Origin: a virus
Taxonomy: Duplodnaviria; Caudoviricetes
IMG/VR virus record: IMGVR_UViG_3300020577_007160
Location: 115,513 to 179,512 of that record
Length of the DNA: 64,000 nucleotides
Reading direction: 5' to 3' (one strand)
A program made the translations under genes and the position numbers. Of the stretch, positions 26,913 to 60,515 are shown one piece after another. The stretch's first letter is position 1. Every line of letters starts with the position of its first letter. Below the pieces are notes generated by a model. That model was not told the DNA's origin and made no database searches. It saw nothing but the letters and a program-made list of their open reading frames with translations.

Positions 26913-28973
26913 CTAGGATTGCTTTCGAAAACGATTTAAAATATTCTGTTTTTCCTGAGAACTCAGGTAATCCTCAAATTGAAAATCCAGATCTTCACTG
27001 TTAGGACTTTCCTGATCTCCATAAATATCAACTGCTGATGGAAGAAAACGCTTCAATGACGTTTTCTCTTTGAGAGTCATTTTAACGAAAGAAAATATTG
27101 AACCGCAGACTGCATCTGCAAGGTCTTTCCGTCCCTTTTCTTTATTTGAAAATAATAAGGGGTGATCAACTTTCTTTTTATCTTTATAATGGATTAATTC
27201 TGATGCCTCCAAAATCAAATCTTCACTAGTATAAAACTCAAACCGATGAGAATCAATGAGATCTTTCCAGGAAATATAAGGAATATCAGTTTTGTCCACT
27301 GATAATAATTCAGTATTGAATCCGAGTTGCTGAAGTTGTTGCATCAGAACAGTGGATTGATATCCGTCAAAAGTAACTTTGAATATTGTTAAATTAAAAA
27401 CTCTTTTTAATTCATGAATAAAATTAACAATTCGCATCAATGGGATTTGCTGACCTTCTTTGGGTAAAATCCGAAACATCAATTCTGTTCTATACTTTTC
27501 TTCTATATCAACCTGGAGTTCCCCTTGCTGATTGATGTTTTCTACTACCCCAATATCATAAATTGTTGACATTGCGAATCCTAAAGCATCTCCCGAAACT
27601 CCAACATCAACATGAATGCATCGGGGAAAGGAAGTCCCCACAACATCAAGATAATCTTTAAATACGCCAACATTAACATAATTCATTATACGATCACTGG
27701 AGTCAGAAAAATCTAAATGAAATGCTGATTTTTTAACAGGGGATAACCACTCATTATTATCTTTGATGATATGCTTCATGCATTGACGCAGATTAGCCCT
27801 ATTGGAAATGAGGCTCAATTGTCCATATGTACTGATTCCTGCAATATCCCGAATTGAATTATTTAATTGACGGGAAAATGATGTTCCGAATTCAATAGGT
27901 ACTTCTATTATTCTATACCCATCAGGATATTCAGCATCCTTTTGAGAAGGATCAACAATATACTTACCTGTTTTAGTATCCTGAACTATTGGAGATATAA
28001 TTCGTGAATCTGAATATTGATCCCCAATCATAACTTTGAAGGTTTCTCCAGAATAAATGTTCAAATGTTCTTTGAACTTCCAGATTGGTTCATCAATAGT
28101 ATAACACTGCGGATTAGATTTATTGTTCTCGATGTGAACTTCTAAAAATGATGAAGTTTCTTTTTTGGAAGAAACAATGTACAATTGTCCTGGAATGTCC
28201 CCTCCAGTTCCCATGAATCGAGACTCCATTCTTCGAAGAATACCCGTATAAGTTTCCATGATGTTAGACGTTGCTACGTCCTCTCCGATTCGAAAGAAGT
28301 TTGCTTCATCGATAAGTCCGCCAAAGAGATTGTACCCCAAGCCGTGAGTGAACTTTGAGCCAATCATCACTGCGATATTCTTCTTGAAAAACAGACCTTC
28401 TGTTATTTTCTTTTCTCTTCCTTTGAGAATATGATCTAAGAAAAATGGAGATAAATCTACCAATGCTGACATCTTATTAAACGTCACATCAGCAGCAAGG
28501 GTAAGAACAATGCTAAAAAATGCAAATGCTATAATATCATCTGTTATTATATTATAGTACGATTGTGGATTTTTTAAGCACAATAACTTATGAATCTGAT
28601 ACAATATTGATGCTACGCCAATGGAAGTTTTCCCTGCTCCGATTGGTCCAGTAAAAAATACTTCTAATATCTTATTTTCTGGATTACAATAAAATTTCAT
28701 ATGGTCAAACCATCGGGGAAATATGTTGTTCCCTAAGGTTGCACCAAGATAATCCTTTGAATAAACAAACGTCTCAATATCAACGGGTTCTTGTTCATAA
28801 TCATATAATTTCAATATCTTCCAAGAAGGGGAATATCCGTAAGAAGAAAGTTCTCGTAGAATTGTTAAAACATATTGTTTTTCGACAGTGTTTAAATTCT
28901 TAAAATAATCCGAACTGTTATTATTTAATCCTGTTAGAACCTGAGTGATGAGTTGTTGATTATCTTCGGTCAT
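26913..28973 (-). CDS. terL: terminase large subunit
   Basis: Walker A GPIGAGKT, Walker B GLIDEANF, nuclease HVDVG, TFDGYQS, KDLADAVCG. Confidence 0.92.
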   Translation of the reverse strand: MTEDNQQLITQVLTGLNNNSSDYFKNLNTVEKQYVLTILRELSSYGYSPSWKILKLYDYEQEPVDIETFVYSKDYLGATLGNNIFPRWFDHMKFYCNPENKILEVFFTGPIGAGKTSIGVASILYQIHKLLCLKNPQSYYNIITDDIIAFAFFSIVLTLAADVTFNKMSALVDLSPFFLDHILKGREKKITEGLFFKKNIAVMIGSKFTHGLGYNLFGGLIDEANFFRIGEDVATSNIMETYTGILRRMESRFMGTGGDIPGQLYIVSSKKETSSFLEVHIENNKSNPQCYTIDEPIWKFKEHLNIYSGETFKVMIGDQYSDSRIISPIVQDTKTGKYIVDPSQKDAEYPDGYRIIEVPIEFGTSFSRQLNNSIRDIAGISTYGQLSLISNRANLRQCMKHIIKDNNEWLSPVKKSAFHLDFSDSSDRIMNYVNVGVFKDYLDVVGTSFPRCIHVDVGVSGDALGFAMSTIYDIGVVENINQQGELQVDIEEKYRTELMFRILPKEGQQIPLMRIVNFIHELKRVFNLTIFKVTFDGYQSTVLMQQLQQLGFNTELLSVDKTDIPYISWKDLIDSHRFEFYTSEDLILEASELIHYKDKKKVDHPLLFSNKEKGRKDLADAVCGSIFSFVKMTLKEKTSLKRFLPSAVDIYGDQESPNSEDLDFQFEDYLSSQEKQNILNRFRKQS

Positions 28974-41332: not shown

Positions 41333-41563
41333 CTAAGATCGTAAACTTCCCTTCAATTTTTCATATTCAGAACTAGAGTAAGAAAGATTATTGATAATAT
41401 AACTAATAAGTGTCTGAAGAATCAAAACAACAATTATAAATAAAGAACCAAATAAAACTGTATTAAGAAAAGTCATTGTGCTGCTGAAATACAATAACAA
41501 AAGTCCAGAGAAACAAAACAAATATCTATGGAAACTTCTTTTCAGATTTAAAAGGGAAGTCAT
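41333..41563 (-). CDS. small membrane protein
   Basis: Two hydrophobic helices. Confidence 0.55.
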   Translation of the reverse strand: MTSLLNLKRSFHRYLFCFSGLLLLYFSSTMTFLNTVLFGSLFIIVVLILQTLISYIINNLSYSSSEYEKLKGSLRS

Positions 41564-42294
41564 TGTTCTATTGTAATTGTTCTAAAAGGTTCTGTTGTAA
41601 AACTTTCTTCCTGAGAAATTAGTATTTCTAATACTTCTTTCTTTTTTTGCAGGCAATCGAGGAAAACAATATTGTCTTCGATTAATATTTCTGGAACTCC
41701 TGAATGACCAACAATCTGAATACAATCTGGAATACTATCAGATCTCAGGGATTCAGGGCGAACCCACAAAGGTGATTGGTAAATACTATTACCATACATA
41801 TCACCTGTGTTTTGAAACTCAAATTTTTTGAAGGAATCTAAAAATGAAGAATTTATATCTTTAATTTTTAATCGGGAATTTGCCAACCACGTCTTTGTTA
41901 TACCAGCATGACTTACTATAAGATTTTTATACTGGAAAATAACTTGAAGTAAGTTCTGATCTACGCAAAGTTTTAATGTTCCTCCAGCCAAAATGGCAGT
42001 GTGGGGTGAGTATCCCGAATACCGTTGATTAACATAGGGCAAATAATGGTAATCATGATTACCCAATAATAAAATTATGTTCTCAGGATTGTAAGATTTT
42101 TCTGATAATAAGTCATCAAAATTTCTTATTTGTTCCGGTGGTATATAAACAAAGGAATCAAAGTAATCCCCTACGAATACGTAGAGAGTACTTGAGAACT
42201 TATTTTCAAGTTTATCTTTCGATAATAATTTTTTCCAAACTGAATCCCCATGGATGTCCCCGATGACAACAATTCTTTTAATATCAGGATTCAT
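41560..42294 (-). CDS. calcineurin-like metallophosphoesterase
   Basis: GDIHG, GDYFD, GNHD, SHAG, VGHS. Confidence 0.9.
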   Translation of the reverse strand: MNPDIKRIVVIGDIHGDSVWKKLLSKDKLENKFSSTLYVFVGDYFDSFVYIPPEQIRNFDDLLSEKSYNPENIILLLGNHDYHYLPYVNQRYSGYSPHTAILAGGTLKLCVDQNLLQVIFQYKNLIVSHAGITKTWLANSRLKIKDINSSFLDSFKKFEFQNTGDMYGNSIYQSPLWVRPESLRSDSIPDCIQIVGHSGVPEILIEDNIVFLDCLQKKKEVLEILISQEESFTTEPFRTITIEQ

Positions 42295-42328
42295 ATAGTA
42301 TAATGTATTGAGATATAACGTGAAATTT

Positions 42329-42748
42329 TTATAAATTATTAAATGCCTTTATTCCTATATCACCTTCCAGATAATTAAGGATCTTAATTCCTAATTCTCT
42401 GACCTTTTTTCCATATTCGAAAGAAGATTCATAGTTCAGAATCTCTGTATGACTCTCCGCATTAAAATCAAATGTTGAAAATAAAATAGTTTTATTTCTT
42501 GAAAATACTACCTGGCACATCCGTGAATGTTCCGACAAGTTCTCCGGCGAAGACCACTGAATAGTTAAATCCCCTGATTCTAGGAAATATATACCAGATG
42601 GCAATAAAAAATAGTCATGCATATTAAAAAACTGAATAGCACAGACAATAGAATCTAAGTTTGGATTAACTAATGGATTATTATCCTGGTATTCCTTATA
42701 GGAAGTAAGAAGAATCTGCGTAAATTCAGAAGAAAGGGTAGAAGTCAT
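42329..42748 (-). CDS. hypothetical protein
   Basis: 139-aa ORF. Confidence 0.55.
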   Translation of the reverse strand: MTSTLSSEFTQILLTSYKEYQDNNPLVNPNLDSIVCAIQFFNMHDYFLLPSGIYFLESGDLTIQWSSPENLSEHSRMCQVVFSRNKTILFSTFDFNAESHTEILNYESSFEYGKKVRELGIKILNYLEGDIGIKAFNNL

Positions 42749-43463: not shown

Positions 43464-43766
43464 TTATGTTAAATTCAATAAAGTATTAACTAAAGAACAT
43501 GCAATTTTACAGGCATGATTTTGAAATTCTGAGTACTCAACAGAAGACTCTGTTACAAGAATAGAATGCATGTCAGTATATGAAACACTAAATACCCCTG
43601 AGTTTTCTTTACAATTTTTCTCAAGATCCCTAGCAAGATTTAAGATTGATTCTTCTGTTGTTCTTATGGGGTGAAATAAAATCTTATTTTTTGTCCCATA
43701 ATTTTTACGAAATAATAAAAGAGTTGGATAAAGAATTTGAGCAATTTCTTGAAAATTATATTTCAT
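43464..43766 (-). CDS. hypothetical protein
   Basis: 100-aa ORF. Confidence 0.5.
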   Translation of the reverse strand: MKYNFQEIAQILYPTLLLFRKNYGTKNKILFHPIRTTEESILNLARDLEKNCKENSGVFSVSYTDMHSILVTESSVEYSEFQNHACKIACSLVNTLLNLT

Positions 43767-43974
43767 GTTCAGAAGTAGTTATATTGGAAACAAAGGAATT
43801 GAATCGGGATTCAAGCGTATTTACAATCTCAACAAGTTCATTAATTTTCTTTATCAAGATCATTATATTTGCTGGAGTAGCATCGGGGATTTGGGTTTGG
43901 TCGTAACCTTCCCATTTCATAGAGGTGTCGGGGAAACTTCCCCAATAAAGTGTTTGTATTGAATTTTCTTCCAT
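43756..43974 (-). CDS. hypothetical protein
   Basis: 72-aa ORF with coiled-coil end. Confidence 0.5.
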   Translation of the reverse strand: MEENSIQTLYWGSFPDTSMKWEGYDQTQIPDATPANIMILIKKINELVEIVNTLESRFNSFVSNITTSEHEI

Positions 43975-44005: not shown

Positions 44006-44187
44006 TGGTGGAAAACAGAATCGAACTGTTTATATTTTGTCCCAAATTTCAACAGCTTTTCATCGTTAAGTGCCTCATCGAGGCCAATAGTACTCTTGTC
44101 CTCAGTTCAACTGCTTAATGCATTTAGCGTAAATCGTGTTGCAACATTACGCACAACCTATTTGGGATACGTCGTCCAGACTCCACC
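44006..44187 (-). ncRNA. compact tmRNA-like / tRNA-like structured RNA (182 nt)
   Basis: Acceptor GGTGGAG/TTCCACC+A, T-arm AACAG-TTCGATT-CTGTT, unpaired TCTGGACGAC D-loop mimic, helix TCCCAAAT/ATTTGGGA, PK1-like pseudoknot. Confidence 0.7.
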
Positions 44188-44200
44188 AATTATAAATCAT

Positions 44201-44584
44201 CTATGCAAGTTGTTTACTTCTATATTTTCTTTTTGTAATTTCAGAATCTAAGGATTCTTTAGGAAATACAAAATCAGAATCTATAGGAAGAGAATATGAT
44301 TTTGAAATATTAATCTTTCCTTTCCCAACTTTCCCCCCTTGAAAACAGAGAAGAAATACTTCCCCATAATCATCGGATTCGACTTCAATACTAATATAGA
44401 TAGTAGGATGTTCTTTCGTATAGTCACAAAATTGATCTATTACTCGATTCAATTCCTTTGTAACTTGTTTACCTTCATTGGAAAGACTCCAGGAAACAAT
44501 TCTTAACTCCTCTCTTGGAATTGGGGCATCAGCAGGTTCAATATCCTTCAATCCAGCCAATGCTATTATATATTGAGTTGCCAT
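44201..44584 (-). CDS. hypothetical protein
   Basis: 127-aa ORF. Confidence 0.55.
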   Translation of the reverse strand: MATQYIIALAGLKDIEPADAPIPREELRIVSWSLSNEGKQVTKELNRVIDQFCDYTKEHPTIYISIEVESDDYGEVFLLCFQGGKVGKGKINISKSYSLPIDSDFVFPKESLDSEITKRKYRSKQLA

Positions 44585-45885: not shown

Positions 45886-45911
45886 AAGAACGTACGACAT
45901 CAGATAAAATC
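45886..45911 (-). promoter_or_regulatory. bipartite phage promoter
   Basis: GATTTTA-N12-CGTTCTT. Confidence 0.65.
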
Positions 45912-47371: not shown

Positions 47372-47396
47372 AAGAACGAACATGTTCAGATTAGAT
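47372..47396 (-). promoter_or_regulatory. bipartite phage promoter
   Basis: ATCTAA-N12-CGTTCTT. Confidence 0.65.
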
Positions 47397-52935: not shown

Positions 52936-53372
52936 GCTTCTACCTGTTCTGATAACTGAGGTTCAAAAGTACTATAAGACCCTCCAGAAATTTTACAATT
53001 TCTAATCTGGGAACACATAGTTTTTCCTAATTCTGTCAATTCAACAAAGAGATTTATCAATGATACAATTTTCAATAAACCTGCAGATTCCAAGTCCTCC
53101 AGGCAATCAATATCATCATGGTCTAGAACTATATTTTCATGGGAGTTGTCTTTGTAATTTTTAAGACGAGAACCATACATTGGATCCCATTTTATCCAAT
53201 ATGGAAAATTGGTAGAACAATGCAAAGGATGAGAACTCGGATTTACTCTCATAAACTTGGCATCCAAGCCACCAATTCCAGGAGAACGCTGGTTATCCAG
53301 AATACAAGTTTCAACATACAATAAAAGAGACCAGTGATCCCTTCCAAAGTCTTTCATCAAAATAGTAGTCAT
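52932..53372 (-). CDS. conserved-looking phage protein
   Basis: FGRDHWSLL.YVE...HDD.DCL.DL..AG. Confidence 0.6.
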   Translation of the reverse strand: MTTILMKDFGRDHWSLLLYVETCILDNQRSPGIGGLDAKFMRVNPSSHPLHCSTNFPYWIKWDPMYGSRLKNYKDNSHENIVLDHDDIDCLEDLESAGLLKIVSLINLFVELTELGKTMCSQIRNCKISGGSYSTFEPQLSEQVEA

Positions 53373-53374
53373 AA

Positions 53375-53695
53375 TTAAATCTGTTTAAAACAATTTTTAA
53401 TTGAATCCGTAAAATCCTCATAGAAAGTTTGGATTCTTCCTGCCAAGAATCCATAGTATTTCCTACCCCAAGCCGATAAAGTTTTGGGATTAGTTAAAGC
53501 AGCTTGACTCAGAGAAACAAGAACGTTTAATTCTTGAATTAAAGTCTTGGTAGACTCTCTTTCCGACTGGATCATCGCCAATAAATATGGTATTACTTTC
53601 GGATCCTGAGATAGGATTGAGAGTATTGCTAATTCTTTTTGTTCTGTAGAAAACAGAGAATGGTCAATTATTGTTTTTATAGATTTAAGATCCAT
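53375..53695 (-). CDS. hypothetical protein
   Basis: 106-aa ORF. Confidence 0.55.
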   Translation of the reverse strand: MDLKSIKTIIDHSLFSTEQKELAILSILSQDPKVIPYLLAMIQSERESTKTLIQELNVLVSLSQAALTNPKTLSAWGRKYYGFLAGRIQTFYEDFTDSIKNCFKQI

Positions 53696-53696
53696 T

Positions 53697-53957
53697 TTAT
53701 TTTTTCTTATGAAGTATTTTACACTCTTCTACGTCAATGAGAATTGGTTCATCCTGATCCTCAAAATATTCGGAATAATTAATTTGACATTTATAATAAA
53801 TGTGCTTTGGGGAAAGAATAGAGATACTTTTAATTTCTGCTTCAATTTCTACTTCTTTCCATTCCGCATGAGAACAACCACAAGTATGGCAACGAACCTG
53901 CAACTCAACACTTCTCAGTAAAACAATCTCATCTTTGATATTAAATTTAGTTACCAT
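53697..53957 (-). CDS. hypothetical protein with CxxC
   Basis: TKFNI.D, CHTCG. Confidence 0.5.
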   Translation of the reverse strand: MVTKFNIKDEIVLLRSVELQVRCHTCGCSHAEWKEVEIEAEIKSISILSPKHIYYKCQINYSEYFEDQDEPILIDVEECKILHKKK

Positions 53958-54501
53958 TATTTACTTTCTTAGCAAGAACATAATCAATTAACCCTTCAAA
54001 TTTAAATATTGACTCAATCCACGTATTATTGATATTGATTTGTTCGGTTGTAAAATGTTGTTTCAATGTAACGTGTTGCTTCAATTCTCGACTCCGCAAT
54101 ACTCTCAAGTTATACTGGCATTCACAAGCTAAAATTGCCAATTCATATGCTTGCATCGGAGTAAAGGAATTCTGATTCTCTTGAAAGTATTGAAAGATAT
54201 AAACTGGAATATCTGCAACATTATTATCTGAAAACCGTGACCATTGTAATATTTTCTTATACTTAGGATTTACACCATTCTTAGTAGGTTGATCTGGCTC
54301 TTCATCCTTGTAAAATAACTCAATATAATCTCGACGAATATCCTGAAGGAATGTTATATTTAAATCAGAATTTTTTGCAGAACCTAATTTAATAAACAAA
54401 CCATTACCAGAATCAAATACTTTGAATATCTGTGTTCCAATTTTAATGAGATCATTCTTACAAATGATCTCATTGTTCTTATCTAGTGCTTTAGAATTCA
54501 T
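53947..54501 (-). CDS. hypothetical protein
   Basis: 184-aa ORF. Confidence 0.55.
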   Translation of the reverse strand: MNSKALDKNNEIICKNDLIKIGTQIFKVFDSGNGLFIKLGSAKNSDLNITFLQDIRRDYIELFYKDEEPDQPTKNGVNPKYKKILQWSRFSDNNVADIPVYIFQYFQENQNSFTPMQAYELAILACECQYNLRVLRSRELKQHVTLKQHFTTEQININNTWIESIFKFEGLIDYVLAKKVNNGN

Positions 54502-54935
54502 TTACGTTTATCTTTTAGTATTTGCCAAAATCGTTCTGGTAACCAAACATTTTCCAGTGAACAGCATTCCTGAAACATTGGAGCAATATCTTTCGGATCC
54601 AATCCAGCCAATCCGCATCCAATTTCTGTTACCAAAAACTCCAGTGTTGGATTAGAACGTGCAAACTCGATAAAATCGAGAACATGACTCTGAATTTCTG
54701 ATAGTGGAAGTGTTGATCCTACGTCCGCAGACTTCGTAGGTAAGGCGTAAGTGTTACCAGCTAGGCCAACTGCCTGACCCCATTTTGCGCCCCACTCTAG
54801 CGCAGTTCTCGCTGCACCACCTCCATGACGTCCAGCAAGATTAGAACCGAAAACAAATACCTGATTTTCTGAAATTGAAGTTATGTATTCTGGAGTTATT
54901 CTACTCATTGATTTCTTGTGAAAATCTAAACTCAT
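54498..54935 (-). CDS. macro-domain-like phage protein
   Basis: VFVFGSNLAGRHGGGAA, TYALPT, FLVTEIGCGLAG. Confidence 0.75.
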   Translation of the reverse strand: MSLDFHKKSMSRITPEYITSISENQVFVFGSNLAGRHGGGAARTALEWGAKWGQAVGLAGNTYALPTKSADVGSTLPLSEIQSHVLDFIEFARSNPTLEFLVTEIGCGLAGLDPKDIAPMFQECCSLENVWLPERFWQILKDKRK

Positions 54936-60406: not shown

Positions 60407-60431
60407 TTAAATTACTACTTGATTATAAAAG

Positions 60432-60515
60432 TACTACCAGTGGGATTCGAACCCACACTCCCATACAGGAACAAGATTTTAAGTCTTGTGAGTCTGCCAG
60501 TTTCTCCATGGTAGT
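60432..60515 (-). tRNA. tRNA-Leu(TAA), CCA not encoded
   Basis: Acceptor ACTACCA/TGGTAGT+A, anticodon arm CAAGA-CTTAAAA-TCTTG, long variable arm, T-arm GTGGG-TTCGAAT-CCCAC. Confidence 0.93.

Follow-up and report, generated by a model that had tools for sequence, protein, structure and literature searches.

Which kind of RNA, if any, is encoded in a 226-nucleotide (nt) intergenic gap of the phage record IMGVR_UViG_3300020577_007160, which is 179,512 bp long and has direct terminal repeats? The stretch analysed, here called the window, covers 64,000 nt (bases 115513-179512 of that record), and the element in question takes up 182 nt of it, at window 44006-44187 on the minus strand, which is the coding strand. 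It had been described as a miniature RNA resembling transfer-messenger RNA (tmRNA), with the alanine identity pair missing and almost no tag, and the sequence features listed in that original prediction are all present at this position, on this strand and between genes. The answer reached here is a different one. We hold it somewhat probable that the element is an orphan phage gene for a stable RNA, shaped like a transfer RNA (tRNA) and unable to decode, which the tRNA enzymes of the host would release from a longer, polycistronic transcript, as with rnaC of phage T4.

Positions in the RNA are numbered from its 5' end (p1, window 44187) to its 3' end (p182, window 44006), and its parts, in 5' to 3' order, are the following.

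44181-44187, minus strand: 5' strand of the acceptor stem, GGUGGAG (p1-7), with a U directly upstream at -1.
44168-44180, minus strand: 13-nt loop in place of the D arm, UCUGGACGACGUA (p8-20), containing U8, a GG doublet and CGAC.
44160-44167, minus strand: 5' strand of the closing helix, UCCCAAAU (p21-28).
44048-44159, minus strand: 112-nt insert (p29-140) replacing the D and anticodon arms, with no thermodynamic signal.
44040-44047, minus strand: 3' strand of the closing helix, AUUUGGGA (p141-148).
44031-44039, minus strand: 9-nt unpaired linker, CAAAAUAUA (p149-157), from the closing helix to the T arm, read in the sequence.
44014-44030, minus strand: T arm, AACAG / UUCGAUU / CUGUU (p158-174), with a perfect 5-bp stem, read in the sequence and recovered by scanning.
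44006-44013, minus strand: 3' strand of the acceptor, UUCCACC, and discriminator A73; CCA is not encoded, the next bases being CUA.

The tRNA features found are thus a 7-bp acceptor on a 5-bp T stem, a T loop of the form UUCRANN, and U8. Pairing of GGUGGAG (p1-7) with UUCCACC (p175-181) gives six Watson-Crick pairs and a single wobble pair, G7-U66, and the eight pairs of the closing helix UCCCAAAU/AUUUGGGA are all Watson-Crick. The motif UCUGGACGAC is located at p8-17. Within the insert there are a possible pseudoknot, with arms GUUGU (31-35)/GCAAC (46-50) and GCGUAA (36-41)/UUACGC (56-61), a short reading frame and weak hairpins. The frame follows UAAAU and reads GCA UUA AGC AGU UGA, which translates as ALSS-stop; an alternative frame of 21 codons reads AVELRTRVLLASMRHLTMKSC-stop and ends in KSC. 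Further complementary segments of the RNA are UUAAG/CUUAA, CAGU/ACUG and GCCUC/GAGGC.

The outer frame, comprising the acceptor, T arm and closing helix, is unlikely to have originated by chance. A strict scan required a T arm with a TTCRANN loop and an abutting 7-bp acceptor with at least four G-C pairs, all within 60-400 nt; it returned this site alone in the real genome and 0.025 sites per Markov-simulated genome, a figure to be read in the light of thresholds that were partly set after the element had been seen. Of simulated inserts, 1.9% had an 8-bp helix of Watson-Crick pairs close to their two ends. The element has a G+C content of 41.8%, which places it in the top 4.5% of genome windows (the genome mean is 31.9%, and the tRNA-Leu gene of the phage has 45.9%). 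A looser scan picked up all tRNAs of a related phage together with its tmRNA, and in addition about ten AT-rich chance sites per genome.

The inner part looks weaker. The complementary segments and the reading frame are there, as had been claimed, but the pseudoknot and inner folds built on them are at chance level: a pseudoknot of the proposed form turns up in 10% of shuffles and has to compete with a simple hairpin that the minimum-free-energy fold contains, and the multi-branch domain and the ALSS frame likewise do no better than shuffled sequence.

The element lies between the stop codon of a 127-amino-acid (aa) open reading frame (ORF) at 44201 and the ATG of a 72-aa ORF at 43974, where it fills 182 nt of the 226-nt space; the operon is tightly packed, and the gap holds no ORF of at least 40 aa on the same strand. 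Many start codons of the phage are preceded, at a distance of 30-60 nt, by a recurrent promoter-like motif, TTTA(t/a)-N10-11-ACGTTCT(t), and the 8-mer ACGTTCTT is enriched 6-fold in intergenic DNA. The motif does not resemble sigma-70 promoters, and a factor specific to the phage may recognise it. It occurs at window 45886-45908 and at about 55 other minus-strand sites throughout the genome, for example at window 40582, 52312 and 55536. The copy nearest to the RNA and the two flanking ORFs are placed as follows.

45886-45908, minus strand: nearest upstream promoter-like motif, TTTA-N11-ACGTTCTT, the presumed start of the unit containing the RNA.
44201-44584, minus strand: upstream ORF of 127 aa, ending in a stop 13 nt ahead of the RNA; without family or homolog.
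43756-43974, minus strand: downstream ORF of 72 aa, with its ATG 31 nt past the RNA; no family.

This nearest copy is 1.7 kb upstream of the RNA, and the next one is at about 40582. As there is no such motif immediately upstream of the RNA and no terminator-like site between the 45886-45908 motif and the RNA, the RNA is predicted to lie within a polycistronic unit, from which it would need to be cut out.

The outer frame suggests how this could happen. Bacterial RNase P uses a 12-bp acceptor/T stack, a canonical T loop, a U at -1 and a G at +1, and the acceptor/T-arm stack suffices for RNase P, 3' processing and CCA addition; such an excision also cuts the flanking transcript. The RNA would be transcribed within a unit of small accessory (orphan) genes, and host RNase P would cut its 5' end, recognising the 12-bp stack, the U at -1 and the G at +1. 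The 3' end would then be trimmed after A73 and CCA added by the host, as for the phage tRNA-Leu, the 3' context of which (A, then C, then U) is the same. The expected product is a stable RNA of about 185 nt, with the division of the operon mRNA into two as a side effect. Lacking an anticodon arm, the alanine identity pair and a credible tag, the RNA is predicted neither to decode nor to tag. Once released, it could serve as a nuclease-resistant tRNA frame that displays the weakly structured insert, or act itself as a decoy for some protein with affinity for tRNA-like shapes. A search of the phage revealed genes for neither SmpB nor a CCA-adding enzyme. Its tRNA-Leu(UAA), at window 60431-60515 on the minus strand, is its single canonical tRNA and also has no encoded CCA, unlike the Ser, Leu and Tyr tRNAs read from related phages, nine of ten of which encode it.

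Homologs of the element, the collection of which had been proposed as a check, were not found in IMG/VR, JGI metagenomes, GTDB genomes, INPHARED or the records of related phages. Neither the element nor the surrounding 8 kb gave a blastn match in INPHARED, which includes the T4 record. The exact 5' 17-mer has three matches in IMG/VR, all of them in GC-rich coding DNA. A pattern combining D-loop, T-loop and CNCCA gave one match in IMG/VR, an ordinary tRNA, and 18 in JGI metagenomes, none with an acceptor partner; a pattern of acceptor, GGA and T-loop gave no matches in metagenomes or in GTDB genomes. The 22-nt 3' half (T arm and acceptor) matched no tRNA gene in 185,579 species genomes of GTDB. 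Its single exact match is in a metagenome-assembled genome of Planctomycetaceae (CAZDQL010000024.1), in GC-rich sequence where no tRNA gene is predicted; it is probably a coincidence, about 0.07 such matches being expected by chance. A single-sequence covariance model (R1) run against 17 phage records (this phage and 16 related ones) found itself alone. The idea of an antisense target was pursued by blastn-short of the RNA against the genomes of this phage and its nearest relative, and only chance matches of 10-13 nt were obtained.

Several points weigh against the reading of the element as a processed, tRNA-shaped RNA, in addition to the partly retrospective thresholds of the strict scan. The predicted RNA is a singleton, with neither conservation nor covariation across the collections searched. 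The insert (p29-140) has a folding z of +0.5 against shuffles and the RNA as a whole only -1.2 to -1.7, compared with -4.3 for the T4 species 1 RNA and -2.7 for a genuine phage tmRNA. The 8-bp closing helix is absent from the minimum-free-energy fold, and the fold resembling tRNA and tmRNA is 3 kcal/mol worse. Unlike the T4 RNA, the element is outside any tRNA cluster, the sole tRNA gene of the phage being 16 kb away. Finally, a sigma-70-like -35/-10 match is present at 44216-44189 and would, if used, start transcription inside the acceptor stem. As a candidate promoter for the RNA itself this match was rejected, because it is badly placed (too near the 5' end) and of a kind that occurs at background frequency.

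Of the known RNAs, the one that the element most resembles in kind is the species 1 RNA of T4 (rnaC; 139 nt, NC_000866 70908-71046), which together with the 119-nt species 2 RNA (rnaD) represents a type of tRNA-shaped stable RNA that is a descriptive kind and not a curated family. The plan of this type, a T arm and an acceptor-like terminal helix around a long insert with no anticodon, is also that of the element. In rnaC a perfect T arm (CCGGG/UUCGAAU/CCCGG) abuts an acceptor-like helix formed from both ends, an insert of about 100 nt stands in place of the anticodon arm, CCA is not encoded, and the RNA goes undetected by the Rfam models for tRNA and tmRNA. The two differ in that there is no likeness of sequence beyond the T loop (by eye), and that rnaC sits at the end of a tRNA cluster whereas the element is alone among small ORFs. 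The acceptor of rnaC has two U-U mismatches where the element has seven of seven positions paired, and its fold is very stable (z = -4.3, against -1.7 here). To our knowledge the function of rnaC is still unexplained after decades. The same acceptor/T-arm stack is found in D-armless tRNAs, mascRNA-type elements and the 'tRNA punctuation' of mitochondria, which are eukaryotic or organellar, and here it is predicted only. If the RNA is made, it would be one more case of a phage RNA that keeps the processing part of a tRNA and drops the decoding part. Because its lineage also holds phages with full tmRNAs, it could help to decide if RNAs of this kind are degenerate forms of a rescue RNA, act as decoys, or carry an inner domain of unrelated nature. 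For the present, its value is that of a clear negative for the 'mini-tmRNA' and of a candidate for processing tests, as a single uncorroborated example predicted from sequence.

The tmRNA genes of this lineage were found in two relatives. The nearest relative found (G001, IMGVR_UViG_3300033075_000428, a 190-kb record) has a terminase 42% and a capsid 66% identical to those of this phage; it shares core genes at 27-66% identity and has almost no homologs of window 37.5-64 kb. At 102347-102765 on its minus strand is a full 421-nt tmRNA (100 bits under the tmRNA model, RF00023) with G3-U70 and a 25-residue tag, GNKQAKVINLYPEANVPQYQYAQAV. The accessory region around it also holds six tRNA genes, one of them with a CUA anticodon (amber-reading) and labelled Pyl by ARAGORN, and G001 does not encode SmpB. 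None of the ORFs around this tmRNA is matched in this phage; synteny is therefore not shared, and position gives no evidence of common descent. A more distant phage (G006, IMGVR_UViG_3300025115_000006; capsid 27% identical) has a canonical tmRNA of 367 nt at 42200-42566 on the minus strand (115.6 bits), adjoining a tRNA cluster, which indicates that tmRNA genes recur in this broad phage group.

Whether the element is itself a reduced tmRNA can be judged from its layout and from model searches. It keeps the tmRNA order of a 7-bp acceptor, an open D-like loop with GG and (C)GAC, a long closing helix and a possible pseudoknot of PK1 topology, followed by UAAAU-GCA (the UA-n-n-n-GCA arrangement), a short frame with its stop codon in a hairpin loop, the T arm and A73; the D-loop analogue of tmRNA is similar to the p8-20 loop, which is shorter. 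Pair 3-70 is U-A and the best frame reads ALSS-stop, both as originally noted, and no alternative register yields the G3-U70 of tmRNA. The search with ARAGORN in tmRNA mode and with Rfam that had been proposed as a check found nothing at the element: ARAGORN reported no tmRNA in the window or the whole genome at its default setting and none at this site with the threshold lowered to 60%, Rfam gave no match to the element at the gathering score or at E <= 10 with the tmRNA and tRNA models included, and a direct search with RF00023 gave none at E <= 10. As positive controls, the same model scored the G001 and G006 tmRNAs as stated above and gave 43 bits to an 83-nt RNA of Mycobacterium phage DS6A that consists of the tRNA-like domain (TLD) only, while ordinary tRNAs score 10-25 bits under it. 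The geometry differs as well. Three extra unpaired bases stand between GAC and the helix, GGAC sits inside the closing helix, the junction from helix to T stem is 8-9 nt where the tmRNA consensus has GGAC and one base, and the spacer from pseudoknot to GCA is 5 nt. Junctions of 13 nt and 9 nt thus contrast with the compact TLD of tmRNA, the length of 182 nt with 367-421 nt in the two relatives, and PK2-PK4 are missing. The tag would have four codons and no degron, and neither frame has the hydrophobic, alanine-rich end typical of tmRNA tags.

By these available tests the RNA is not a tmRNA and the likeness in layout is superficial, so that the idea of a miniature ribosome-rescuing tmRNA, on which the original prediction centred, is contradicted by the U3-A70 pair, the absence of any model or ARAGORN match, the wrong junctions and the four-codon non-degron tag; a pseudoknot of PK1 topology can be drawn, of a form that shuffles give in 10% of cases. 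The tmRNA genes of the two relatives and the shared order of parts are what speak for a miniature tmRNA bearing a non-alanine amino acid, which would add X-ALSS and rescue ribosomes without a degradation tag; we nonetheless consider it extremely unlikely, since, beside the points just listed, established identity rules offer no known synthetase to fit this acceptor, and we know of no anticodon-independent synthetase for G1-C72, G2-C71, U3-A70 and A73 where a D arm or long variable arm is missing. Hardly any credence is likewise given to a minimal trans-translation RNA, uncharged or charged by an enzyme other than alanyl-tRNA synthetase, that would free stalled ribosomes via a four-residue non-degron tag and would have derived from the full tmRNA of the relatives by loss of PK2-PK4 and a change of identity. 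A decoy for SmpB or a tRNA-binding factor is a possible role by analogy with the DS6A RNA ('CDS-less' tmRNA, JN698994 ~28478-28560), which has the tRNA-like top half and no usable tag, and which has been proposed to inhibit host trans-translation (PMC4131195, PMC11915505). In its fuller form, this explanation has an uncharged TLD titrating host SmpB or another binder of the tRNA top (a defence nuclease, the CCA-adding enzyme or EF-Tu) and so blocking trans-translation or tRNA-directed defence. A passage of PMC4131195, citing Mao et al. 2009, reports that TLD-only RNA is a strong inhibitor of tmRNA, chargeable with alanine or not, and that the effect may come from SmpB titration; the D-like loop and GGAC motif of the element recall the tmRNA TLD, and such a role would be compatible with the processed tRNA-shaped RNA as its downstream function. 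The DS6A RNA differs, however, in its GGGG...CUCC acceptor, G3-U70, length of 83 nt and score of 43 bits, none of which the element shares, and the element has a 112-nt insert that a decoy does not need. Its GAC and GGAC are off the tmRNA consensus positions, GGAC being paired up in the closing helix, with 8 nt between it and the T stem, and the tmRNA model is blind to its TLD even though it gives scores to ordinary tRNAs. We rate the decoy as quite unlikely.

Two further explanations dispense with a tRNA-shaped gene product of this kind. In one, the element is a tRNA gene (type II or Ser(UGA)-like) that is either split or no longer functional, having been killed by an insertion of about 107 nt in its anticodon loop or being interrupted there by an intron. 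With introns allowed and the threshold lowered to 80%, ARAGORN does model a tRNA-Ser(UGA) here: its anticodon stem is 5 bp long, its loop is U-U-UGA-A-A, and the 107 nt following p28 are taken as an intron; tRNA-Ser(UGA) genes are present in relatives, and the 12-nt 'variable' region has type II length. As a description of the anatomy, the suggestion of a tRNA with a large insertion made in the original prediction is fair, but removing the interior does not leave a normal tRNA, the sole and poor model having no proper D arm. At the default threshold there is no call even with introns allowed, a cloverleaf with D and anticodon arms is missing, and there is no match to the tRNA model (RF00005) at E <= 10. 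The D arm is nearly absent and the variable region is stemless, whereas serine tRNAs of related phages have structured variable arms and G73 in place of A73, and their sequences show no similarity to the acceptor and T arm found here. An insert of 107-112 nt is far below the size of a group I intron, no intron family was matched at E <= 10, and 20 perfect outer pairs are not expected of a decaying pseudogene; this explanation is very unlikely. The other holds that there is no RNA gene, only untranslated spacer or the leftover 3' fragment of a tRNA (an attachment site) with complementarity by chance. It would account for the lack of homologs in the searched collections, for an insert with no thermodynamic signal and for the ease with which the looser scan finds AT-rich chance 'modules', at about ten per genome. 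It must be set against the expectation of the strict scan, to which the closing helix adds a factor of 0.019, and against the position on the coding strand, the close fit to the gap and the enriched G+C. The failure of the 3' half to match any tRNA gene in the 185,579 species genomes argues against a leftover attachment-site fragment, as does the lytic myovirus suggested by the direct terminal repeats and the rIIA and rIIB genes. We regard the absence of an RNA gene as unlikely, and as the most serious of the alternatives to the processed tRNA-shaped RNA.

The genes on either side of the element give no hint of their function. Neither of the flanking proteins (127 aa and 72 aa) has a match in Pfam, PHROGs or the ESM Atlas or a relative in IMG/VR, and the 127-aa protein matched only itself among 5.8 billion proteins. 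The name 'Csx20-like' formerly given to this upstream gene has no support, there being no Pfam or PHROG match, no homolog and only a low-confidence Atlas model.

The phage, which is uncultured, is of the myovirus type, as shown by genes for tail sheath, portal, terminase, rIIA and rIIB. About 97% of its ORFs are on the minus strand, about 93% of the genome is coding, and its gaps have a median length of 32 nt. Of the 292 ORFs in the genome, only 23% have a Shine-Dalgarno-like motif in front of them, compared with a background of 15%, and all three stop codons are in use (TAA in 173 ORFs, TGA in 86 and TAG in 33). The weak use of Shine-Dalgarno motifs and a similarity to Maribacter phages hint at a Bacteroidota-like host, although the best capsid matches are to Listeria and Bacillus phages.

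Two genes hint at a capability for RNA repair. A 244-aa calcineurin-type metallophosphoesterase is encoded at window 41560-42294 on the minus strand, and G001 has a homolog of it, as it has of few other genes in this region. In PHROGs it matches best the phosphoesterase segment (residues 171-311 of 737) of an 'RNA ligase' family of Pnkp-like RNA-repair enzymes. A PF09414 RNA_ligase domain (35.7 bits) is present in a 465-aa protein encoded outside the window, at 53152-54549 of the phage record (minus strand). Also outside the window, a second intergenic motif, TTATATAGTTTTCAATTCAACAA, is repeated in four near-identical copies on the minus strand, at positions 47388, 57580, 61971 and 63550 of the phage record.

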